From positions 1-33,216 of the forward strand of contig JBJHAZ010000001.1 in NCBI GenBank assembly GCA_050485225.1: 33,216 bases of DNA, given 5' to 3'. Source of the stretch: Gammaproteobacteria bacterium. Its GTDB lineage: Bacteria > Pseudomonadota > Gammaproteobacteria > Pseudomonadales > Porticoccaceae. Below the pieces are notes generated by a model. It saw nothing but the letters and a program-made list of their open reading frames with translations. It was not told where the DNA came from and made no database searches. How positions within the stretch are numbered: the first letter of the stretch is position 1; each line of letters begins with the position of its first letter. Below, in pieces: positions 5,035-28,620 of this stretch. The position numbers and the translations under genes are program-made.

Positions 5035-7173
5035 ATGATGTGCGGTGGCGCGCCGCCCGAATACCCCGGATCGCCAAAAGGACTCGTCGTGTCGATCTCT
5101 GGCAGCATTGGACTTCACACCTACCTGATCGCCGGCGCCTGTTATGGTGTACTCACCCTGCTGACGCTCACCCTCCGCCGCGTCAAGACCATCGGCCCTG
5201 CGCTGCTTGCAGCCTGCCTGGGGACCACGATCTGGGCTACAGTCGTCGCCTCGGCCACCGCCACCGGCCAACCACCGGCCAACCTGGTACTCACCAGCGA
5301 ACTGCTCCGCAACACATTGTGGCTGGGTTTCCTGCTGCAGATGCTCAGCCTGCGCAGTGACGACACCCCCTGGCGACTGCGCGGTCGGCACTGGCTACCA
5401 TGGCTGGCAGCGTTTCTTGTGGGTGCCTCGGTGCTGCTGATCGCACAGCCCCTGCAGCCCCTCGACCCCATGGGGCCGCTGTCGCTGGAGCTGCAGTATG
5501 AAACCACACTGATTCTGTGGCTCCTGATGTCCCTGACGGGACTGGTATTGCTCGAACAGCTGTTTCGCAACGGGTCCAGCACCGAACGCTGGGCGCTGAA
5601 ACACCTGTGTATCGGCCTGGGAGCGATGTTTGCGTACGACTTTTTCATGTACGCCGAAGCATTGCTGTTCCGGCAGCTGGACGCCGACCTGTGGCAGGCA
5701 CGCGGACTGGTCACCGCGGTGGTGACGCCCCTGTTTGCCATTTCCATGGCACGCAACAGTTCCTGGCACCATCGGGTCACCATTTCACGCCAGGTGGTCT
5801 TCCACACCGTGACCTTGATGGGTGCAGGCCTGTATCTGCTGGGGATGGCCCTGATCGGCTATATCATCCGCTTCATGGGCGGCACCTGGGGGCATGTGCT
5901 GCAGGTGGGCTTTCTTGCCGGTGCCGGAGTGCTGCTGGCGACTGTGCTGTTTTCCGGAAAGGTCCGCGCGCAACTTGGCGTGCTGCTCAGCAAACATTTT
6001 TTCAGCTATCGCTACGACTATCGCGAGGAGTGGCTGAAGTTCACCGGGGCCCTGACAGCACTGGATCAGGAGGTGCCCGCCGGCATCGTGCGCACCTTGG
6101 CGGAGCTGGTGGATAGCCCGGCAGGGCTCCTCTGGGCCAGGGGTGACGAGGGGCGAATGCACCTGGTGGCCAATTGGGAGATGCCTCCCCCCCCGGTCAA
6201 CGATCAGCAACTTGCCCAGCTGGCCAGCTGGCTGGCTCGAACCGACTGGGTGATCGATCTGCGCGAGTGGCACAGAACACCGGACGTGTACAACGATCTC
6301 GAGCTCCCGCAGTGGATCCAGGCCGATCCCAGTCTGTGGCTGATCGTGCCGCTGGTATTCCAGGAGCGGCTCGAGGGTATCCTGTTGCTCAGGAAGTCCC
6401 CTCTGAAAGCCGGTATCAACTGGGAGGATCGGGACCTGCTCAAGACAGCCGGACGCCAGGCCGCCAGCCACCTGGCCCAGCACCTGGCGAGCAAGGCGCT
6501 GGTGGAAGCCCGCCAATTCGAGGCCTTCAACCGGCTTTCGGCTTACGTGGTACACGACCTCAAGAACATCCTTGCCCAGCAATCGCTGATGGTGGCCAAC
6601 GCGGCCAAGCATCGCCACAATCCGGCCTTCATTGACGACATGATAGCGACCGTGGAAAACTCGGTAGCCAGAATGCAGCGCCTGATGGAGCAGATGCGCA
6701 GCGGGCTCCGCGAGGCACCGCCGGAGCCGGTGGATCTTGCGGAGGTGCTGCGGGAGGTCGTGGCGGCCAGAAACGGTGGCCAGCCTGCACCGACCGCCCA
6801 GCTCGACAAGGGCGACTGCCGGGTGATCGCCGACAGAGAGCGACTTTTTACCGTGTTCAACCATCTGGTCCAGAACGCGCAGGAAGCGACCCCACCCGAT
6901 GGTACCGTCACCGTGCGGATGAAGCCCGACGAGGACGTCGTGGTGGTGGAGGTGGAGGATACCGGTTGCGGTATGAGCGAGGAGTTCATGCGCAACAGCC
7001 TGTTCCAGGCTTTTGAGTCCACCAAGGGACTCACCGGCATGGGCATCGGCGCGTTCGAAAGTCGCGAGTACGTCCGCCACCTGGGCGGTGATATCCAGGC
7101 CAACAGCGAGCCGGGGGCAGGAAGCCTGTTCAGGGTAACCCTGCCCAGATCAATGACACGGGTTCCGGAGTAA
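5035..7173 (+). CDS. prsK: PEP-CTERM system histidine kinase PrsK (multi-TM N-terminus, GAF-like middle, HisKA/HATPase C-terminus)
   Basis: About 300 aa of hydrophobic helices, followed by the H-box SAYVVHDLKNIL and HATPase motifs (NHLVQNAQEA, DTGCGM, GMGIGAF). It lies directly upstream of a sigma-54 response regulator inside an EPS locus. An alternative start is the GTG at 5089, preceded by AAAGGA. Confidence 0.85.
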   Translation: MMCGGAPPEYPGSPKGLVVSISGSIGLHTYLIAGACYGVLTLLTLTLRRVKTIGPALLAACLGTTIWATVVASATATGQPPANLVLTSELLRNTLWLGFLLQMLSLRSDDTPWRLRGRHWLPWLAAFLVGASVLLIAQPLQPLDPMGPLSLELQYETTLILWLLMSLTGLVLLEQLFRNGSSTERWALKHLCIGLGAMFAYDFFMYAEALLFRQLDADLWQARGLVTAVVTPLFAISMARNSSWHHRVTISRQVVFHTVTLMGAGLYLLGMALIGYIIRFMGGTWGHVLQVGFLAGAGVLLATVLFSGKVRAQLGVLLSKHFFSYRYDYREEWLKFTGALTALDQEVPAGIVRTLAELVDSPAGLLWARGDEGRMHLVANWEMPPPPVNDQQLAQLASWLARTDWVIDLREWHRTPDVYNDLELPQWIQADPSLWLIVPLVFQERLEGILLLRKSPLKAGINWEDRDLLKTAGRQAASHLAQHLASKALVEARQFEAFNRLSAYVVHDLKNILAQQSLMVANAAKHRHNPAFIDDMIATVENSVARMQRLMEQMRSGLREAPPEPVDLAEVLREVVAARNGGQPAPTAQLDKGDCRVIADRERLFTVFNHLVQNAQEATPPDGTVTVRMKPDEDVVVVEVEDTGCGMSEEFMRNSLFQAFESTKGLTGMGIGAFESREYVRHLGGDIQANSEPGAGSLFRVTLPRSMTRVPE

Positions 7174-7219
7174 CCCACAGAGGTTCCCCAAGAGAACCTG
7201 TCGCAACGGGAAGGATATT

Positions 7220-8564
<1,345 letters not shown>

Positions 8565-19916: not shown

Positions 19917-20675
19917 ATGGATCTGATCAACGCCCTGCTCCGCCAGACCCTGGACAGCCTGCGCGACCTGCTGCCTGTGGTGGTTGTCATCGCCTGCTTT
20001 CAGCTGCTGGTGATTCGGCAACCGCTCCCCGATGCCCTCTCGCTCACGGAACTGCTGGCCGGTGTCCTGCTCGTGCTGGTGGGGCTGACGCTGTTCGTGC
20101 AAGGCCTCCAGATCGGCTTGTTCCCGGTGGGGGAAAACCTGGCTCATGCGCTGGCGCGCAAGGGATCGGTGTTCTGGATGTTCCTGTTTGCCTTTGCGCT
20201 GGGTTTCGGCACCACAATAGCCGAACCCGCCCTGATCGCGGTGGCCGGCAAGGCCGCCCAGGTGATGGCCGAGGCCGGGGCCATCGCCGCGACCGAAGCA
20301 GCCCGGGAGCAATTTTCTTTTCGGCTTCGTATGGTGGTGGCCGTATCCGTCGGGATTGCCGTCATGATCGGAGTCCTGCGTATTCTCAAGGGCTGGCCCC
20401 TGCATCTGATCATCATCGGCGGGTACGTTCTGGTACTGCTCCTGACCACGGTCGCGCCGGACGCCATCATCGGCATCGCCTATGATTCCGGCGGGGTCAC
20501 CACGTCGACCATCACGGTCCCCCTGCTAACGGCTCTGGGCGTGGGCCTGGCCACCGCCATCAAGGGGCGCAGCCCGATCCTGGACGGATTCGGACTCATT
20601 GCACTGGCCTCGGTCATGCCCATCATCTTTGTGCTCACCTTCGGACTACTGACATTGCCGGGAGGCTCGCTGTGA
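19917..20675 (+). CDS. DUF1538 family integral membrane protein (copy 1)
   Basis: [32 protein letters not shown] and [25 protein letters not shown] are the conserved DUF1538 blocks as I recall them. Confidence 0.8.
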
Positions 20676-21466
20676 TCGCCCCCTCGGAGACGGTGGGCAT
20701 TCTGCTCGAGACCGTGCGCGATATCCTGCCGATCATCGCCATCATTTTCGGCTTCCAGTATCTGGTAATCCGCAGAAAGGTGCGCAATCTTGGGCGGATA
20801 GCCACCGGCTTTGCCATGGTGCTGATCGGCTTGACGTTGTTTCTGGTGGGACTGGAGCAGGCCCTGTTCCCCATCGGCAGCCTGATGGCGGAACAGTTGA
20901 CCTCTGCCGAGTTCCTTCCCCAGCTGGCGGCCGGCGCCCAGCGTCACTGGAGTGACTATTACTGGGTCTACCTGTTTGCCTTTGCCATCGGGGCCAGCAC
21001 CACCATTGCCGAGCCCGCCCTGATCGCCGTCTCCCTGAAGGCCGGAGAAGCGTCGGGGGGCACCGTCGACCCACTGATGTTGCGCGTCGCTGTCGCCGTG
21101 GGCATGGCCTTCGGCATCACGCTGGGCTCCTGGCGCATTGTCATGGGGTGGCCACTGCACTGGTTTGTACTGGGCGCCTATGTACTGGTGATCGTCCAGA
21201 CGCTGCGCTCACCGCGCAAGATCATTCCGCTGGCCTTTGACTCGGGTGGTGTGACCACCTCCACCATAACGGTACCCATCATAGCGGCGCTGGGATTGGG
21301 CCTGGCGGAATCGATCCCCGGACGGGATCCATTGAGAGACGGCTTCGGCATGATTGCACTGGCGTGCCTGTTTCCCATCATCACCGTGATGGGCTATGCC
21401 CAGATTGCCGAATGGCGCGATCGACGTTCCGCCGCTCGCGATACCGAAAGACGGCCAACCGAATGA
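20672..21466 (+). CDS. DUF1538 family integral membrane protein (copy 2)
   Basis: Paralogous blocks [32 protein letters not shown] and [25 protein letters not shown]. The GTG start overlaps the copy-1 stop (GTGA), with GGGAGG 6 nt upstream. Confidence 0.8.
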
Positions 21467-21849: not shown

Positions 21850-22272
21850 ATGAGTGACATGCAATCAAGCCACAAGGGCACGATCGTCTCGGTGAAGGAT
21901 GTGATGAGCGGTGATTACCGGCTGGTGAAAGGGGTGACAACCGTGGCCGAAGCCCTGCAGCAGATTCGCGGCACCGAGATCCGCGTCCTGGTCGTCGACA
22001 AGCGGGATGAGCGGGACGAATACGGCATCGTGCTGTTCTCGGACATCGCCAAGAAAGTGCTCGCCCGCAACAAGGCGCCGGAGCGGGTCAACCTTTACGA
22101 GATCATGGCAAAACCGGCGCTGGGGGTCGCACCCGAGATGCAGATCCGCTTCTGCGCGCGCCTGTTCGAGCGCTTTGGCCTGAGTGTCGCACCGGTTATC
22201 GACAGCCAGGGCCGGATCCAGGGGGTCGTGAATTACGAAAGCCTGGTCATGAAGGGCCTGCTGGGACCCTGA
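21850..22272 (+). CDS. CBS-domain pair protein
   Basis: 140 aa. VKDVMSGDYRLVKGVTTVAEALQQIRGTEIRVLVVDK... and ...LSVAPVIDSQGRIQGVVNYESLV form two CBS repeats. GGAGGAG SD upstream. Confidence 0.8.
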   Translation: MSDMQSSHKGTIVSVKDVMSGDYRLVKGVTTVAEALQQIRGTEIRVLVVDKRDERDEYGIVLFSDIAKKVLARNKAPERVNLYEIMAKPALGVAPEMQIRFCARLFERFGLSVAPVIDSQGRIQGVVNYESLVMKGLLGP

Positions 22273-22285
22273 CAATCGACACGGG

Positions 22286-23635
22286 TCAATCCGTCGCGGC
22301 CGCCCGGTAGCGCTCCGGGTTGATGTCGTGCCGCTTCACCAGCTTGTGAAAGTCCGAGCGGTTGCGTCCGGCGAGTTCGGCCGCCATGGTCATGTTGCCG
22401 TTGGTGGCGGTCAGCACCTGAATCAGGTACCTGCGCTCGAAGTCCTTGCGGGCGTCGCTGAGGCTCACCACAGGCCGCACCCGATCGATCGGTAGGGCCT
22501 GCTCCACCTGGCCGGCCGCAATAACGGGTCCCGGGGCCAGCGCAAACAGCCGCTCCACGGTATTTTCCAACTGGCGAATGTTGCCGGGCCACTCATAGCC
22601 GAGCAGCACCGGCAAGGCATCGGGGGCGAGCCTCTTGGCCGGTCGGCCGGTGCGCTGGGCTATACCGGCGATGAAGTGCTCCACCAACATCGGGATATCC
22701 TCGGGACGATCCCGCAGCGGCGGCAAGTGCAGATTGACCACGTTGAGCCGATAGAAGAGATCCTCCCGGAACTGCCGCTCGGCCATCGCCTGCTGCAGAT
22801 CGATATGGGTCGCGGAAATGACCCGCACATCCAGTGACATGTCCGCCCGACCGCCGACCGGCCGCAGCTTGCCTTCCTGCAGCACCCGCAACAGCTTCGC
22901 CTGCAACGGATACGGCATGTCACCGATCTCATCGAGCAGCACCGTGCCCCCATCGGCGGTAGCGAACAGGCCCTCGCGGTCCTGATGGGCACCGGTAAAG
23001 GCGCCCTTCACGTGACCAAACAGCTCCGACTCCAGCAGGTCCTGGGGTATGGCACTGCAGTTGATGGCCACGAAGGGCTGATCGGCGCGGGCGCTCTGAC
23101 TGTGAATGGCATCGGCCAGCAACTCCTTGCCGGTACCGCTCTCCCCGGTAATGAGGATGTTGACGTCGCTCTGGGCGTACAGCCGCGCCTGCTCCAGCAA
23201 CTGATACATCTTGGCGCTGCGGGTAAGAATTCGGGATTGGCCCACCTCGCTGGGCGGCGAGGCCGGCTGCGCCGCATCGCAGGCGCGCGCCAGGGTGCTT
23301 TCCAGTTCGTCCTTGTCCACCGGCTTGGTGAGAAAGGCGAATACGCCCTCCTGGGTGGCGCTGACGGCTTCCCGGATCGTGCCGTGAGCCGTCAGGACGA
23401 TGAACGGAATGCCCGGCCAGCGATCGTGCGCTCGCCGAAACAGCTCCAGGCCATCCATCGGTTCCATGCGGAGATCCGTGACCACGGCGTTGACACCGTT
23501 CTCTTCCAGCACCTCCAGTGCCTGCGCCCCGGAGGAAGCAGTCAGGGTGCGATACCCGAACCCGCCCAGCCTCAGGCTCAGCAGCTGCAGCATGCCCGGG
23601 TCATCGTCGACGACAAGTACCTGTGGACTCTTCAA
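22286..23635 (-). CDS. glrR: Sigma-54-dependent response regulator, GlrR/QseF-like
   Basis: By eye it aligns along its whole length with E. coli GlrR as I remember it (VLVVDDDPGMLQLLSLRL..., TDLRMEPMDGLELF, ILTAHGTIREAVSATQEGVFAFLTKPVDKDEL, ESELFGHVKGAFTGA, WPGNIRQLEN, C-terminal HTH). Its start overlaps the upstream stop (ATGA). Confidence 0.8.
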   Translation of the reverse strand: MKSPQVLVVDDDPGMLQLLSLRLGGFGYRTLTASSGAQALEVLEENGVNAVVTDLRMEPMDGLELFRRAHDRWPGIPFIVLTAHGTIREAVSATQEGVFAFLTKPVDKDELESTLARACDAAQPASPPSEVGQSRILTRSAKMYQLLEQARLYAQSDVNILITGESGTGKELLADAIHSQSARADQPFVAINCSAIPQDLLESELFGHVKGAFTGAHQDREGLFATADGGTVLLDEIGDMPYPLQAKLLRVLQEGKLRPVGGRADMSLDVRVISATHIDLQQAMAERQFREDLFYRLNVVNLHLPPLRDRPEDIPMLVEHFIAGIAQRTGRPAKRLAPDALPVLLGYEWPGNIRQLENTVERLFALAPGPVIAAGQVEQALPIDRVRPVVSLSDARKDFERRYLIQVLTATNGNMTMAAELAGRNRSDFHKLVKRHDINPERYRAAATD

Positions 23636-24114
23636 TGATTCCTCCTGTTGCGACGAAGACTTTCCATATCGGCCTCGATCTGGCGGATACCCTCGACAGT
23701 CGCTTCCAGTTGTTCGGCGAGCTGGCTGTTGCGGTCCTCCAGCATGCGATAACTGCGGGTGTGATCGCGCAGCATGTTCAACAACGATTGCAGCGCCGGG
23801 TCGCGATCGGGGTTGTCCGGCAAGGCATTCAGGGCTTCTCGCATGAGACCCGGTGTACGCGCCGGGTCGCAGCTCGTCAGCAGCACGCGCTCGATAGCGG
23901 TCGCCTCGTCATGCCCCTGCAACTCAGCAAGCCGGGCACGCTGCACTTCACCTTCCAGGCTGCACAGTTCGCTGCGACGCAACAGCCAGGTGGTTGCAGG
24001 ATCCGGCTCCGGATCGACCGCTTCACAGACGGGCAGATCATCAACGGGCACCGGCTGCAACGGCTGACAACCCGCTAACAATACGGCAACCAGCCACAAA
24101 GTACTTCTAGTCAT
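23632..24114 (-). CDS. Lipoprotein located between the kinase and regulator genes (QseG/YfhG-like position)
   Basis: Lipobox LLAGC. C-terminal coiled-coil-like region (LEDRNSQLAEQLEATVEGIRQIEADMESL). It overlaps both flanking genes. The gene order kinase-lipoprotein-regulator equals glrK-qseG-glrR. Confidence 0.65.
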   Translation of the reverse strand: MTRSTLWLVAVLLAGCQPLQPVPVDDLPVCEAVDPEPDPATTWLLRRSELCSLEGEVQRARLAELQGHDEATAIERVLLTSCDPARTPGLMREALNALPDNPDRDPALQSLLNMLRDHTRSYRMLEDRNSQLAEQLEATVEGIRQIEADMESLRRNRRNH

Positions 24115-25552
24115 TTCTTGTCACCCCCTTGTGGGGGAAAAAGAGCAGGAATGCCGTGCCCTCTCCCTTCCCTGAATGTACGGAAATACTGCCGTTGAGC
24201 AAATCCGCAGCCGCCTTGACGATCGCCAGCCCGATGCCATTGCCGGGGCGACTGTCGCCGCGGGTGTTGCGACCGCGGTAGAACGGAGCAAATATATGGT
24301 CAAGTTCGCTTCTTTCAATACCCGTGCCCGTGTCGGACACCGACAGGCACCAGCCCTTGCGGTCCTCCTCCCAGCGCACCGTCACGGATCCGCCGTCCGG
24401 CGTGAACTGGAACGCATTGCCCATCAGGTTGGCGAGTATCATCTCGAGCAGCCTCGGGTCACTGGTGACGCTGTCCACATTCCCGCTCAACTCCCATCTC
24501 AGGCTCTTGTCGGGGTTCGCCGTGACGATACGCTGCCGCAAGGTCTCGCAAAGTCCGGCCATATCCACCGGTTGAAAATGGGCCATCAGCCCGTGAGACA
24601 CGGCATTGTAATTGAGCAGCTGCTGAATCAGGTCCTGCAGGTGGCGCGCATTGCTGAACAGGATTTCCAGCACCTCCCGCTGACCCGGCTGGAGGGCTCC
24701 GGTGACCTCGTCCCTCATGAGGCTCGCCGCCTCGATGATCGCAGCCAGCGGCGTCTTCAGCTCATGGGTCACATGCTGGATGAACGCGGTGCGCTGCTCG
24801 TCGCTGGCGCAGATCTGCTGTCTCATCCACTCGAGGTTATTACCCAGCGCCACCAGGTCGGCTGGCCCGCCGATGACGATGGGCTCGTCCCACTGCTGCC
24901 GGCCAAGCCGCCGGATGGCCTGGCTCAGCCTCCAGATCGGACGCGAAATGAGAAAGGTGCCCAGCACCATCAGCAGGAAGGTGCCGGGCAGGGTCAGCAT
25001 GGCAATCAGAAACAGTCGATCCACGATGCGGGCAAACTCCCGTTCGCCCTGCTGGATATTCGCCTGGCGTGCCCGCGAGACGGCGCTGGCCAGGTCGTCA
25101 CTGTCAAGCAGCAGAGTCTGCACGAGGTGTGTCACCTGCTGGTCCGACGCCTCGCCGTTGACGGCGAGGCTGTCTTCGAGCAGCGCCGCATCCTCACCGA
25201 TGGTGACTACCAGTCGACGCCAACCGGACTCGAGCGGCAATGACCGGAGCAGACCGAGTGTTTCACCGAGCGTCTCGTTCTTCTGCACGAAAAGCTCGAG
25301 AAAGGTTTCGTCCCGCAACAGGCGATACTGCCGGGCGAGGCGAACCAGCTCGCTGACGTCGTCCATCAGCCGGCCGGTGGCATCCGCCAGCCGGTCGAAG
25401 CGCTGCATGCTCTCCGTCTGACGCGCGGTCTGCTGCTGCAGCGAGAAAACGGCGTACCCCGCAGCAACCATGAGCGGCAATACCGCCAACAGGGTTGCCA
25501 ACGCCCACTGCTGCAACAGGGTCAGGCGACCAAAACCGGAACTCCTCAACAT
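24107..25552 (-). CDS. glrK: Sensor histidine kinase, GlrK/QseE-like
   Basis: Two TM segments flank a periplasmic domain, followed by HAMP (SRPIWRLSQAIRRLG), the H-box FIQHVTHELKTPLAAI and HATPase motifs (LMGNAFQFT, DTGTGI, GIGLAIV). Confidence 0.8.
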   Translation of the reverse strand: MLRSSGFGRLTLLQQWALATLLAVLPLMVAAGYAVFSLQQQTARQTESMQRFDRLADATGRLMDDVSELVRLARQYRLLRDETFLELFVQKNETLGETLGLLRSLPLESGWRRLVVTIGEDAALLEDSLAVNGEASDQQVTHLVQTLLLDSDDLASAVSRARQANIQQGEREFARIVDRLFLIAMLTLPGTFLLMVLGTFLISRPIWRLSQAIRRLGRQQWDEPIVIGGPADLVALGNNLEWMRQQICASDEQRTAFIQHVTHELKTPLAAIIEAASLMRDEVTGALQPGQREVLEILFSNARHLQDLIQQLLNYNAVSHGLMAHFQPVDMAGLCETLRQRIVTANPDKSLRWELSGNVDSVTSDPRLLEMILANLMGNAFQFTPDGGSVTVRWEEDRKGWCLSVSDTGTGIERSELDHIFAPFYRGRNTRGDSRPGNGIGLAIVKAAADLLNGSISVHSGKGEGTAFLLFFPHKGVTRND

Positions 25553-25597
25553 GCAATCTCTTCCCTGGATGAAAACTCATTGTGCCCCAAGATGGCA

Positions 25598-25617
25598 GTG
25601 TTGCACAGATGCGACAC
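25598..25617. promoter_or_regulatory. Operator copy 1: GTGTTGC-N6-GCGACAC (contains TGTT-N10-GACA)
   Basis: GTGTTGCacagatGCGACAC. Both 7-nt arms are shared with copy 2, which lies 66 bp away. It is close to the TGTC-N10-GACA motif reported for E. coli GlrR sites. Confidence 0.6.
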
Positions 25618-25663
25618 CCTAACCCACTGTTTTTATTAGACCCATAGCCCCTAAGGTGAAATG

Positions 25664-25683
25664 GTGTTGCCATAGCGCGACAC
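25664..25683. promoter_or_regulatory. Operator copy 2: GTGTTGC-N6-GCGACAC
   Basis: GTGTTGCcatagcGCGACAC, centred roughly 100 bp upstream of the predicted sigma-54 start site. A degenerate third site, TGTC-N10-GCGA, follows at 25686-25703. Confidence 0.6.
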
Positions 25684-25714
25684 AATGTCGGATCAGCAGG
25701 CGAGCAAAAACAAC

Positions 25715-25727
25715 CAACATATTGATA
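25715..25727 (-). promoter_or_regulatory. IHF-like site
   Basis: The reverse strand reads TATCAATATGTTG, matching WATCAANNNNTTR exactly. It sits in an AT-rich tract between the operators and the -24 element. Confidence 0.5.
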
Positions 25728-25746
25728 TTAATGAATATTTATAAAA

Positions 25747-25762
25747 TGGCACAGCACTTGCT
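25747..25762 (+). promoter_or_regulatory. Sigma-54 promoter (near-perfect consensus)
   Basis: TGGCAC-agcac-TTGCT, with the -24 and -12 elements perfect and at exact spacing. It is oriented toward the small lipoprotein gene, about 75 nt before the ATG at 25836. Confidence 0.8.
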
Positions 25763-25835
25763 AAACACCCATCGTCTGCAGCTGACGCGAGGTGCCCAAC
25801 CCCACTCCAGCCAACACTGCAGGGAGCGAATGCCG

Positions 25836-26063
25836 ATGAAACCGATGCTGCTGTTGAGTGGCGTGTTCTGCAGCATCCTGCTGGCACTCACATTACCGGG
25901 TTGCCAGAAGGAGGGGCCCGCAGAGCGTACCGGACGGGCATTGGACGAAGCAGCTCAGGACGCGGCGATGCACCTTGATCGCCAGAGACAGAAAGCCGAG
26001 GAACTGCGACTGGATTCCGAGACGTTCCAGCGCGATTGCGCCGCCACTGAAGGTGGCTGCTGA
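25836..26063 (+). CDS. Small putative lipoprotein (75 aa)
   Basis: MKPMLLLSGVFCSILLALTLPGCQKEG... is a signal peptide with a lipobox-like LPGC. GGGAG lies 9 nt upstream of this ATG. The track ORF 25656..26063 extends spuriously upstream through the promoter. Confidence 0.55.
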   Translation: MKPMLLLSGVFCSILLALTLPGCQKEGPAERTGRALDEAAQDAAMHLDRQRQKAEELRLDSETFQRDCAATEGGC

Positions 26064-26158
26064 AAAACACCGCCAGCAACGGATAGCAGGCAAGGAAGAT
26101 GATCCGACGAGAGCACAGGTCGACACAACCGTCGGCCGCACAACTCAGGAGACCGGAA

Positions 26159-26368
26159 ATGAGCCCGGTAAACGATGTCGAAGAGGCAACCGAAAAGCTC
26201 GTATCGCTGGGATGGTCCGTGGTGCTGTTCATTGTCGCCATCATCGCTGCCCTGCTGAGTTTTTCCGACCTGGAGCATGCGTTGGTCCAGGGTGCCATCG
26301 GCCTCTTCCTGATCTGCCTGACACTGGGTATTGCCCTGCTGTTCGTCGGCCGAACGCCGATCGACTGA
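26159..26368 (+). CDS. Small two-TM membrane protein (69 aa)
   Basis: MSPVNDVEEATEKLVSLGWSVVLFIVAIIAALLSF...GAIGLFLICLTLGIALLFVG. AGGAG lies 7 nt upstream of the ATG at 26159. Confidence 0.5.
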   Translation: MSPVNDVEEATEKLVSLGWSVVLFIVAIIAALLSFSDLEHALVQGAIGLFLICLTLGIALLFVGRTPID

Positions 26369-26421
26369 ATTCGGCGAAGCCCCCACACACCGGGGCTCGC
26401 CAAAAAGAACCCTTCCCGCTT

Positions 26422-26447
26422 GGGGCCCCGCAAGGGGCCCTTTTTTT
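26422..26447 (+). terminator. Rho-independent terminator
   Basis: GGGCCCC-gcaa-GGGGCCC is a perfect 7-bp GC stem with a GNRA loop, followed by TTTTTTT. A second bulged hairpin (GGCGAAGCCCC...GGGGCTCGCC) precedes it at 26373-26401. Confidence 0.85.
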
Positions 26448-26469
26448 GTCTCGCGAAAAGCGGGAGCTG

Positions 26470-28620
26470 TCAGCCGTAGTAGCGTTCTCCGCTGGCTGCC
26501 ATGGCGCGCATGGCCGCAGTCGGCTCGTACAGCTTGCCCAGTGCGGCGAAGCGATCCGCCTGGTGACAGATCTCGGCCAGTCCCAGCTCGTCCATCCAAC
26601 GGTAGATGCCGCCCCTGAACCGGGGAAAGCCGAGCCCGTAGATAAGTCCCATATCGCCTTCCGCCGGCGAGCCGATAATGCCTTCCTCCAGCGCGCGCGC
26701 CGCCTCGATGGCCATCGGCAGCATGACCCGCAGCGCCATGTCCTCGTCCGGCAGGGTTTTGCCCGCCGGTGCGATATGCTCGCTGATCAGGGCGCGACTG
26801 TCCTCGTCGACGGTTTTTTCCGGGCGACCCGCCTGATCCTTGCGGTAGCGATAAAACCCGGCACGACTCTTCTGGCCGTAGCGCTTGTGCTCCGACATCA
26901 GGCACAGGGCGGAACGGTCGCGGTCCGGTGCCATGCGATCGGGGTAGCCGACCTCCAAGGCGGCAAAACAGTGCACCGCCACGTCGATGCCCACGACATC
27001 CATGAGGTACGCAGGCCCCATGGGCATACCCCATGCCTCCACAGCCCGGTCGACGGCTTCGAAGGCCACACCTTCCCGCACCAGCATGTCGAAGGCCAGG
27101 ATGGCGGGAAACAGGGTTCGGTTGACGAAGAACGCCGGGCAGTCATTGACCACGATGACCTTTTTGCCCATCGCTAGCCCCTGGGCCACGGTGGTGGCAA
27201 TAGTCTCGTCCGAGGTTTTCTCGCCCCGGATGACCTCGACCAGTGGCATGGCGTGGACCGGATTGAAAAAGTGCATACCGCAGAAGTTTTCGGGGCGCTT
27301 GAGCGCCTCGGCGATGCGGCTGATCGAGATGGTCGAGGTGTTGGATGCCAGCACCGCATTTTCCGACAGCCGGCCTTCCACATCGGCCAGCACCGACTGC
27401 TTGATGTCGAGGTTCTCCACCACCGCCTCGATCAGGAGGTCGGACTGCTCGATCCCCTGGTAGTCCAGCGTGGCCGTGATCCGACTCACGGCCTCCTCGC
27501 CTTTCGCCGCGCTCATCTGGCCGCGCTTGACCCGCTTGGCCACCAGGCCCCGCGCCTCCTCCATACCGACGTCCAACGCCTGTTGGTTGATGTCCTTCAT
27601 GAACACCGGAAAACCCTTGAGGGCGTTCTGATAGGCGATACCACCGCCCATCGTGCCCGCGCCCAACACTGCGAGCTGGCCCACCTTGCGGGCGGCCCTG
27701 GCATGACCGCGTGCGATCCGTCCAATGGCCTGATCGTTGACGAACAGTCCGACCATGGCCCGCGCTTCGGCGGTTGCAGTGACCTCGTAGAAGGCCTCGA
27801 ACTCCACCTCGAGGGCCTCCGGCAACGGCAACGGCGCCGATTTGACCATGGACTCGAAGGCCACCAGCGGTGCCTTCCAGTGGCGGCCGGCAATGTTGCG
27901 CACCACGCTTCGGGAGCGCTCCACTGCCTCGTGGAATGCTGCCTCGCCCAAGGCGATCGGGTTGTGTTTGGCCAGGCGCCGTTCACGGCAGCTGATCTCA
28001 CCACGGGCACAGCGCTGCAGCCAGCTCAGGGCTTCCTCACGCAGTTTGCTCGGCTCGACGACGGCATCCACCAATCCCAGCTCGAGCGCAGCCTGCGCAC
28101 GGTATGGCGCTCCGCTGGCCACTGCGGCTGCAGCCGGCTCGAAGCCGATGACCCGAGGCAGGCGAACGGTTCCGCCCCACCCGGGAATGATGCCCAGCCC
28201 GGTCTCGGGCAAACCCACCTGGGCGCCCTCGGCCATGATGCGGTAGTCGCAGCCCAGACAGAACTCGAGGCCGCCACCCATGGCGGCGCCATTGATGGCC
28301 ACAACAATGGGCAGATGCAGGCTTTCGAGTCTCAGGATATTGCGACTGTTGGCGCTGGCAAAGCGACGGAAATGGTCGATTGAGGTGCCGAATACATTGC
28401 CGAATTCGGTGATATCGGCGCCCGCTATAAACACGGTTTTGCCACTGGTGACCAGTAGCCCACGAATGCGTTCCGCCTGCTCGAGCCGATCCAGCGCGTC
28501 GGACAGCTCGGCCACGGTATCGCTGTCGAACTTGTTGACCGAACCACCCTCGGCGTTGAAGTGCAGCTCCACCAATCCGTCCTCGATGGGCGTCAATGCG
28601 AGTTTCTTGCCCTGATACAT
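26470..28620 (-). CDS. fadB: Fatty-acid oxidation complex alpha subunit (enoyl-CoA hydratase / 3-hydroxyacyl-CoA dehydrogenase)
   Basis: MYQGKKLALTPIEDGLVELHFNAEGGSVNKFDSDTVAELSDALDRLEQ parallels the E. coli FadB N-terminus. Crotonase fold plus the NAD-binding LAVLGAGTMGGGIA. GAGGAGAG SD upstream. Confidence 0.9.
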   Translation of the reverse strand: MYQGKKLALTPIEDGLVELHFNAEGGSVNKFDSDTVAELSDALDRLEQAERIRGLLVTSGKTVFIAGADITEFGNVFGTSIDHFRRFASANSRNILRLESLHLPIVVAINGAAMGGGLEFCLGCDYRIMAEGAQVGLPETGLGIIPGWGGTVRLPRVIGFEPAAAAVASGAPYRAQAALELGLVDAVVEPSKLREEALSWLQRCARGEISCRERRLAKHNPIALGEAAFHEAVERSRSVVRNIAGRHWKAPLVAFESMVKSAPLPLPEALEVEFEAFYEVTATAEARAMVGLFVNDQAIGRIARGHARAARKVGQLAVLGAGTMGGGIAYQNALKGFPVFMKDINQQALDVGMEEARGLVAKRVKRGQMSAAKGEEAVSRITATLDYQGIEQSDLLIEAVVENLDIKQSVLADVEGRLSENAVLASNTSTISISRIAEALKRPENFCGMHFFNPVHAMPLVEVIRGEKTSDETIATTVAQGLAMGKKVIVVNDCPAFFVNRTLFPAILAFDMLVREGVAFEAVDRAVEAWGMPMGPAYLMDVVGIDVAVHCFAALEVGYPDRMAPDRDRSALCLMSEHKRYGQKSRAGFYRYRKDQAGRPEKTVDEDSRALISEHIAPAGKTLPDEDMALRVMLPMAIEAARALEEGIIGSPAEGDMGLIYGLGFPRFRGGIYRWMDELGLAEICHQADRFAALGKLYEPTAAMRAMAASGERYYG

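Follow-up and report, generated by a model that had tools for sequence, protein, structure and literature searches.

The DNA considered here, a 33,216-nt stretch of the genome of a gammaproteobacterium of the family Porticoccaceae (contig JBJHAZ010000001.1; hereafter the window), contains at positions 25598-25762 what we take, with a probability of roughly 0.8, to be a functional sigma-54 control region of the GlrR type serving a small lipoprotein operon. GlrR, also called QseF, is the regulator that accompanies the sensor kinase GlrK (QseE). Together with sigma-54 and integration host factor (IHF), the stretch very probably acts as an on-switch for two neighboring genes for small envelope proteins, and it adjoins a three-gene operon that resembles glrK-qseG-glrR.

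The Control Region

Every motif that a sequence-only reading had listed in this region is present where it was placed, and the 33 kb contain no further exact match to the operator sequence, to the IHF core, or to the sigma-54 consensus. The elements, with one site that the earlier reading lacked (IHF-like site 1), are the following.

25598-25617, no strand: operator A, the distal upstream activating site, GTGTTGC-N6-GCGACAC (GTGTTGCACAGATGCGACAC); its 18-bp core, TGTTGCacagatGCGACA, spans 25599-25616, with its center about -166 from the predicted start
25620-25632, minus strand: IHF-like site 1, between operators A and B, TAACCCACTGTTT as read on the plus strand
25664-25683, no strand: operator B, the proximal upstream activating site, GTGTTGC-N6-GCGACAC (GTGTTGCCATAGCGCGACAC); its core spans 25665-25682, with its center about -100 from the predicted start
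25686-25703, no strand: degenerate third site, TGTC-N10-GCGA, on the promoter side of operator B
25715-25727, minus strand: IHF site 2, TATCAATATGTTG, an exact match to WATCAANNNNTTR, with its center at about -52
25747-25762, plus strand: sigma-54 promoter, TGGCAC-N5-TTGCT (TGGCACAGCACTTGCT / TGGCACagcacTTGCT)

The GG (25748-49) and GC (25760-61) of the promoter predict a transcription start at about 25773. Operators A and B stand 66 bp apart, start to start, as had been noted, and operator B is 82 bp from the promoter. The two operators are the only zero-mismatch matches in the window, whether the query is GTGTTGC-N6-GCGACAC (exactly two matches, both strands counted) or the relaxed family consensus TGTYGC-N6-GCRACA; by arithmetic, 66 kb of two-strand sequence should contain an exact 14-base pattern of this kind about 2.5e-4 times. 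For the IHF core WATCAANNNNTTR the 33 kb contain one exact match, IHF site 2, against 0.20 expected from shuffled sequences, and TGGCAC-N5-TTGCW matches exactly once in the window, at 25747-25762.

All of these elements lie in a 280-bp intergenic region that separates the minus-strand kinase gene from the plus-strand small genes and is AT-rich (39-50% GC, against 60-67% around it). Operator A is 46 bp from the kinase start codon. A promoter scan of 25400-26600 found no sigma-70-like promoter, for either the lipoprotein gene or the kinase gene, and a BLAST search of the region against plasmids returned no match.

Conservation of the Cassette

Orthologous loci were obtained through homologues of the kinase and from a genome collection. 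A scan of genome contigs with the kinase alignment used a generic HisKA peptide, so that most of the 80 loci found belong to unrelated kinases; these were reused as a negative control, and about 25 of the loci are of GlrK type. The composite scan looked for two operators 60-72 bp apart with a sigma-54 element 60-140 bp downstream. It finds the module in the window and in 25 GlrK-type loci, and in none of 52 unrelated kinase loci (411 kb).

Operators A and B are 63-69 bp apart in the window and in all 25 other module loci, and the promoter points away from the operators in every one. IHF-like site 1 follows the start of operator A by 20-22 bp, its orientation unchanged, at 19 of the 26 loci, the enterobacterial ones included; exact IHF matches occur at this offset in Leclercia, Xenorhabdus, Serratia, L085, and L019. 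IHF-like site 2 starts 31-33 bp upstream of TGGCAC, likewise in constant orientation, at 17 of the 26, several betaproteobacteria included. The distances from operator B to the promoter fall into classes of about 81, 92, 102, 111, and 124 bp.

An alignment of 10 orthologous intergenic regions, whose kinases are 39-72% identical, contains five conserved blocks only: operator A, IHF-like 1, operator B, IHF-like 2, and TGGCAC-N5-TTGC. Operator A occupies the same position in all 10 regions and is followed directly by the IHF-like 1 block, AACCnnCTGTTTT; the IHF-like 2 block reads TAACCnnnTGATTT, and the TGGC and the GC dinucleotide of the sigma-54 element are invariant. Both operators are thereby kept in the aligned regions, and the combination of IHF and sigma-54 elements first read from the window alone recurs across its relatives. 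The degenerate third site is indeed present, but its columns are unconserved in eight of nine close orthologous regions, and L090 alone has a comparable site, at +20. We dropped it as a conserved element, since the aligned columns vary and the enterobacterial layout has no counterpart. The control region had also been called complete, which holds for two operators and two IHF-like sites but not for three operators.

That the motifs coincide by chance in an AT-rich spacer might be argued from the shortness of each one and from the third site and the IHF-like matches in general, which are of a kind that AT-rich DNA commonly yields. Four exact matches, however, are each unique in 33 kb and all fall within 165 bp, and their fixed spacing is conserved across distant relatives whose flanking sequences are not. 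These conservation data effectively refute coincidence, whose likelihood we put at next to nil.

At the orthologous locus L087 (3685-4000), operator-like sites are kept beside the kinase gene and the divergent gene encodes a bacterial globin; no sigma-54 element was found in this interval, and the cassette may have decayed or been replaced. One 8.8-kb locus from a Pseudohongiella metagenome-assembled genome (MAG), L011, holds two modules (1676-1860 and 6756-6905), each with the variant operator TGTTGGG-N4-CCCAACA followed by TGGCACAGC-N2-TTGCT. This doubling may mean that the regulon has a further member here, or that a paralogous activator has changed its specificity.

The Sensor Operon

The kinase gene is transcribed divergently from the sigma-54 promoter and heads an operon of three genes.

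24107-25552, minus strand: GlrK/QseE-like sensor histidine kinase, 481 aa, with Pfam HAMP, HisKA, and HATPase domains
23632-24114, minus strand: QseG-like lipoprotein, 160 aa, with lipobox LLAGC and C-terminal coiled-coil motif GIRQIEADM
22286-23635, minus strand: GlrR/QseF-like sigma-54 activator, 449 aa, with receiver, AAA+, and Fis-type helix-turn-helix domains (Pfam)

The glrK-qseG-glrR gene order that had been recognized here stands, with overlaps of 8 bp between the kinase and lipoprotein genes and 4 bp between the lipoprotein and regulator genes. For the regulator, GlrR is the best NCBIfam match (561.6 bits, against 423.6 for NtrC), and the protein is 52-53% identical over its full length to the regulators that stand in the GlrR position at L025, L026, and L035, three glmY-bearing loci of enterobacteria (Leclercia, Xenorhabdus, and Serratia). 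Its AAA+ domain carries a Walker A motif, GESGTGKE, and GAFTGA, the motif of sigma-54 contact; the receiver aspartate lines up with the phospho-acceptor of the enterobacterial proteins, and the recognition helix, RNRSDFHKLVKRH, is close to their RNRTEFYKLLSRH. The initial description of the regulator as GlrR-like agrees with these features.

Several homologues of the kinase are named GlrK by JGI. Its named relatives come from Porticoccaceae, Cellvibrionaceae, and Kineobactrum, the nearest being 72% identical, which makes the source an uncultured gammaproteobacterium of marine origin near Cellvibrionales. The pairwise identity of the kinase to enteric GlrK is 26%. A profile of the N-terminal 210-aa sensor region aligns with enterobacterial GlrK (hhalign 95.8%, E 7e-9) and with GlrK-like kinases of beta- and gammaproteobacteria (99.4%). 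The middle lipoprotein has no family match, Pfam included. Its window-clade profile matches the middle proteins of the beta- and gammaproteobacterial operons (95.2%, E 3e-8), which in turn match enterobacterial QseG (94.7%, E 6e-8) and share with it a C-terminal L-x-x-IE-x-x-L coiled-coil motif; direct comparison of the profile with enteric QseG is weak (8%), and the link is transitive only. Profile comparison in this way upholds the homology of the kinase sensor to GlrK and of the middle protein to QseG. Judged by identity and profile comparison, the operon is a homologue of glrK-qseG-glrR, because all three of its proteins are homologous.

In Kineobactrum salinum (CP048711; L090, 5467-5951) the qseG-like gene is called as two short open reading frames of 103 and 58 aa, which may represent a frameshift or a pseudogene in this complete genome.

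Arrangements of the Cassette

The cassette adjoins the sensor operon in every module locus, in beta- and gammaproteobacteria alike, and does so in three arrangements.

Arrangement 1, divergent, upstream of the kinase gene: the window, L081-L083, L085, L086, L088-L090, L001, L004, L014, and L015
Arrangement 2, downstream of the regulator gene, co-directional: L002, L003, L012, L013, L017, L019, L020, L023, L027, and L028
Arrangement 3, upstream of the kinase gene, co-directional: enterics (with glmY) and the Neptunomonas genome L006

The hosts of arrangement 2 are many betaproteobacteria and some gammaproteobacteria. The architecture had been thought ancestral and portable, and this distribution fits: the same cassette recurs beside glrK-qseG-glrR-like operons in many beta- and gammaproteobacteria, in all three arrangements.

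The arrangements also bear on a different function for the palindromes, which might serve, additionally or instead, as autoregulatory operators of the divergent glrK-qseG-glrR operon, operator A covering the -35 of a weak sigma-70 promoter with CACAAT, which is conserved in part, as its -10. The kinase promoter must fall within the 280-bp intergenic region, and operator A is 45-49 bp from the kinase start codon in most divergent loci. About 10 bp to the kinase side of operator A, the sequence ATTGTGCC (GGCACAAT on the kinase strand; window 25581-25588) is conserved in the window, L081, L082, and L086, and may hold the -10 of the kinase operon (CACAAT). The promoter scan, however, gave no sigma-70-like match, the candidate -35, read by eye, fits at only three of six positions, and an operator pair that lies downstream of the regulator gene, as in betaproteobacteria, or upstream of glmY, as in enterics, is unable to overlap the kinase promoter. 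An autoregulatory role for operator A is plausible, but it is not the conserved role, since arrangements 2 and 3 separate the cassette from the kinase promoter; as the explanation of the palindromes we consider autoregulation doubtful, though by no means far-fetched.

Specificity of the Palindromes

A metagenome scan for exact operator pairs returned 107 stretches. Eighty of these loci were examined, and 17 carry the sigma-54 module, mostly before EF-hand genes and adjoining GlrK/GlrR homologues. The module-less loci that were inspected (12 of 12) have iteron-like arrays or other repeated or isolated palindromes and no sigma-54 element. The palindrome pair alone is neither specific nor diagnostic.

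Arrays of four to six TGTTGC-N6-GCAACA palindromes, spaced by about 21-26 bp, are found at L092 (6930-7180), L096, L106 (3453-3600), L112 (9874-10020), L154, and L171, where neither a sigma-54 element nor GlrK or GlrR is close by. In appearance these are iterons, or else operator arrays belonging to mobile elements or phages. Because these palindromes occur without the sigma-54 element or GlrK/GlrR, the half-site is apparently reused by unrelated DNA-binding proteins.

Such reuse leaves room for a sigma-54 promoter that is real while its activator is encoded elsewhere, the palindromes belonging to some other DNA-binding protein; many activators of the NtrC family bind inverted repeats of the TG-N-CA type, and the unrelated iteron-like arrays contain TGTTGC-N6-GCAACA palindromes. 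We regard this as very improbable. The full module is linked to a GlrR orthologue in about 26 loci and three arrangements and is absent from the 52 control loci, the recognition helix is conserved, and the half-sites are those experimentally shown for GlrR (PMC3045617).

Genes behind the Promoter

The predicted transcript would cover two small genes and end ahead of a convergent third.

25836-26063, plus strand: first gene, a 75-aa lipoprotein, with lipobox LTLPGC followed by the motif QKEGPAERTGRALDEAA (MKPMLLLSGVFCSILLALTLPGC-QKEGPAERTGRALDEAA)
26159-26368, plus strand: second gene, encoding a small, 69-aa membrane protein in which two stretches are hydrophobic
26422-26448, plus strand: intrinsic terminator, GGGGCCCCgcaaGGGGCCC plus TTTTTTT, strong in a terminator scan, which would end the two-gene transcript
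26470-28620, minus strand: fadB, convergent, beyond the terminator

From the predicted start, the 5' leader of the lipoprotein gene is about 63 nt long, with GGGAG as ribosome-binding site. The second gene has AGGAG before its ATG at 26159, and an alternative in-frame start at 26099 would give 89 aa; we read its two hydrophobic stretches as predicted transmembrane helices. The lipoprotein belongs to no Pfam or NCBIfam family and has no BON domain by Pfam. It falls within a very large family of small lipoproteins, for which a profile search gave 4147 matches. The family has the motif CxxEGPAE(R/K)xGxxID in common; in some members a BON domain follows at the C-terminus, and JGI gives some the name "hyperosmotically inducible protein." With the lipidated BON proteins P0178 and P0240 it has only this N-terminal motif in common. 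The membrane protein resembles DUF1328/YtjA (Pfam PF07043) weakly (E 0.013; 16.3 bits, against a gathering cutoff of 27).

Orthologues of the lipoprotein gene hold the same position in L081-L083 and lie further down the divergent operon in L085 and L086, and the membrane protein gene is its conserved partner in L081-L083 and L086. In L085 (2421-3760) and L086 (2140-3756), both Porticoccaceae, the divergent operon encodes an EF-hand protein, an OmpA-like beta-barrel, a small lipoprotein, and a small membrane protein; in the window and L081-L083 only the lipoprotein and membrane protein genes stand directly behind the promoter. The window lineage appears to have lost the EF-hand and OmpA-like genes, because the last two genes of the longer operon are the orthologues of the window pair.

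The promoter might instead yield a regulatory RNA, either an analogue of GlmY or a cis-acting leader, rather than simply a messenger. The small RNAs GlmY and GlmZ are what the homologous cassette drives in enterobacteria (PMC3045617), and the leaders at L088 and L089 are about 110 nt long. Rfam, however, has no family in the window, at its gathering thresholds or at E values up to 1, and GlmY and GlmZ are found neither in the window nor in its non-enteric relatives, GlmY occurring in L025, L026, and L035 only. Compared with shuffled sequence, the 63-nt leader shows no better folding (z +0.72), and it is unconserved in the alignment; a conserved coding gene with a ribosome-binding site follows it immediately. 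An RNA product is scarcely to be expected here, and the original observation that the region is divergently oriented and faces no GlmY-like small RNA holds. A structured leader or attenuator was considered as well and is unlikely, the fold being no better than that of shuffled sequence.

At the module loci of other genomes the cassette stands before the following cargos.

Periplasmic EF-hand proteins: L001, L006, L007, L012, L017, L085, L086, and 8 of the 17 module-bearing metagenome loci
BON-domain proteins: L088 and L089
opgH-like glycosyltransferase genes: L019, L020, and L023 (about 7040-7340), for which Pfam confirms glycosyltransferase family 2 only
MdoG-family opgG/opgD: L027 (6141-6311) and L028 (6883-7062), with a Pfam MdoG score of 639 bits for L028
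Bactofilin: L004 and L015
Crp-like regulator: L090

The name opgH is our presumption, taken from reading the N-terminal sequence of the genes at L019, L020, and L023. The betaproteobacterial opg loci, with genes for osmoregulated periplasmic glucans, belong to Variovorax, Janthinobacterium, Pseudorhodoferax, Rhizobacter, and Hydrogenophaga. Most of the cargos are envelope or periplasmic proteins, often with an osmotic connection, which would point to a role in envelope stress.

In the Neptunomonas MAG (JAWUYS010000061; L006, 3330-3965), two operators 65 bp apart, the IHF-like sequence TAACACACTGATA, and CGGCAC-N5-ATGCT form a cassette that lies upstream of the kinase gene and is co-directional with it, and a 104-aa periplasmic EF-hand protein is encoded in the glmY position. 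Because the position and orientation of this cassette are those of glmY in enterobacteria, the arrangement may be an evolutionary intermediate.

Among the flanking genes, fadA does not stand between fadB and the lipoprotein operon of the window; a thiolase (fadA) gene does lie between fadB and the small genes in L081 and L082, and L083 is without it. At the other end of the sensor operon, a gene for a 140-aa CBS-domain protein (21850-22272) converges with the regulator gene just past its 3' end and is not conserved there in the relatives examined. Beyond it, tandem genes at 19917-21466 match the Na,Li,K/H+ antiporter subunits UmpA (406.6 bits) and UmpB (478.2 bits), just below the NCBIfam equivalog cutoffs of 490 and 500.

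Comparison with Known Systems

The sigma-54 promoters from which Enterobacteriaceae transcribe glmY and glmZ under the control of GlrR (QseF) were reportedly the subject of work by Reichenbach in 2009. The glmY promoter has three TGTCN10GACA activator binding sites (ABS1-3) and uses sigma-54 and two IHF sites flanking ABS3, of which the distal one is essential; ABS1 can be dispensed with, and its conservation is poor even among enterics (Gopel et al. 2011; PMC3045617). The GlrR consensus has been given as TGTN12ACA (Gopel and Gorke 2018; PMC6075780). In L025, L026, and L035, Rfam places GlmY directly upstream of glrK, and the elements before it run from ABS1 over 33 bp to ABS2, then an IHF site, ABS3 (63 bp from ABS2), an IHF-like site, and the sigma-54 promoter, a layout in agreement with both publications.

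Set against this layout, operator A, the IHF-like site, and operator B of the window (66 bp) correspond to ABS2, IHF, and ABS3 (63 bp), operator A answering to ABS2 and operator B to ABS3. The operators are of the type TGTYGC-N6-GCRACA and so conform to TGTN12ACA. The distal operator is followed directly by an IHF site, another IHF-like site precedes the promoter, the -24/-12 element reads TGGCA-N6-TGC, and the cassette immediately adjoins glrK-qseG-glrR. The half-sites in the window, TGTT-N10-GACA, had been described as one mismatch away from the GlrR motif, and that departure is within the natural range, ABS3 of Leclercia being TGTTGC-N6-GCGACA, the form of both window operators (for the consensus, see PMC6075780 and PMC3045617). 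IHF-like site 1 would then be equivalent to the essential distal IHF site of E. coli glmY.

The window differs from the glmY case in its product, predicted to be a messenger for two small envelope proteins and not a small RNA, in the divergent rather than co-directional orientation of its cassette relative to the kinase gene, and in its marine, non-enteric gammaproteobacterial host. It has no conserved counterpart of ABS1, a site that in enterics stands beyond ABS2, away from the promoter. Operator B is separated from the promoter by 82 bp, against 107-125 bp in enterics, and no sigma-70 promoter overlapping the sigma-54 promoter was detected in the window.

Two other E. coli systems invite comparison. 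The rpoE P2 promoter shares with the window an envelope-linked protein-coding target, the use of sigma-54 and QseF, similar upstream sites, and a need for QseG, but its target is a sigma factor and it is unlinked to the sensor operon (PMC6075780). The pair osmY-ytjA resembles the window genes in that a gene for a periplasmic stress protein is followed by one for a small membrane protein. The N-terminal motif of the window lipoprotein is common to lipidated BON-domain proteins, and BON-domain cargo occurs at L088 and L089; in contrast, the window lipoprotein lacks a BON domain and the DUF1328 match of the second gene is sub-threshold. We take osmY itself to be RpoS-dependent and not sigma-54-dependent.

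QseE/QseF (GlrK/GlrR) has been described as a system of Enterobacteriaceae with the direct targets glmY, glmZ, and rpoE, and a 2018 account still listed the periplasmic stimulus in E. coli K-12 as unknown (PMC6075780). A "QseF-like" activator class of 117 members was recognized by Francke et al. (2011; PMC3162934), its promoters not being described. Searches of open-access text turned up no account of the cassette outside enterics or of what it controls there, and nothing relevant on GlrR/QseF outside enterics or on sigma-54 control of EF-hand or opg genes.

Several observations weigh against a GlrR-type control region at 25598-25762. The regulator's GlrR score of 561.6 bits is under the NCBIfam equivalog cutoff of 763. 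IHF-like site 1 departs at two positions from YAANNNNTTGATW, which is WATCAANNNNTTR in reverse complement. The conserved operators number two, against the three described for glmY, and unrelated iteron-like arrays likewise contain paired TGTTGC-N6-GCAACA palindromes. The distances from operator B to the promoter are suggestive of helical phasing, but the nominal R of 0.59 falls to 0.38 (p about 0.08) when redundant distances are collapsed.

Proposed Mechanism

We infer a sequence of events in which the kinase, aided by the QseG-like lipoprotein, would phosphorylate the receiver aspartate of the GlrR-like activator. The activator would bind the two 18-bp inverted repeats, TGTYGC-N6-GCRACA, about 100 and about 166 bp upstream of position 25773 or thereabouts. 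IHF would introduce two bends, between the operators and near -52, and these would bring the AAA+ activator to the sigma-54 RNA polymerase waiting as a closed complex on TGGCAC-N5-TTGCT, which ATP hydrolysis would then open. The resulting transcript, of about 650 nt and ending at the hairpin at 26422-26448, would encode two small proteins. One is a lipoprotein of hydrophilic type, akin to the N-terminal segment found in some lipidated proteins with a BON domain, and the other a membrane protein with two predicted helices.

This would be the known glmY-type mechanism, because the order of operator A, IHF, and operator B matches ABS2-IHF-ABS3 and the operator form is shared with ABS3 of Leclercia. 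The regulator family, the operator, the logic of IHF and sigma-54, and the linkage are all already known, and the locus reveals no new mechanism. As for the signal, our guess is envelope, osmotic, or ionic stress, because of the types of target that recur.

Evolution and Significance

A broader history is possible, and we offer it tentatively, as something we would not yet wager on. GlrK-QseG-GlrR may have been ancestrally a periplasmic envelope-stress system, responsive to osmotic or ionic conditions and possibly to Ca2+, with a cis-linked cassette of enhancer, IHF sites, and sigma-54 promoter whose original cargo was a periplasmic or envelope protein. That cargo would have been an EF-hand, OsmY-like, or BON-domain protein, or opgG/opgH. 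The gene for the small RNA GlmY would have replaced such a cargo, with Neptunomonas as an intermediate, and the gene pair in the window would be the remnant of an operon for an EF-hand protein, an outer-membrane barrel, a lipoprotein, and a membrane protein that still exists in Porticoccaceae.

The locus and its relatives place the three-gene sensor and its promoter grammar well outside the enterics, with genes for envelope or periplasmic proteins as the cargo. The grammar of the glmY promoter is older and more widespread than glmY itself, which gives these loci comparative value and supplies an evolutionary frame for the way in which glmY may have come under sigma-54 control. The window would offer a simpler readout of the system, a single adjoining protein-coding operon, and a concrete hypothesis for its signal, namely osmotic or ionic stress in the envelope. 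The composite motif, consisting of two operators, two IHF sites, and a -24/-12 element at fixed offsets, was specific enough in these scans that prediction of GlrR regulons in new genomes could be tried with it.

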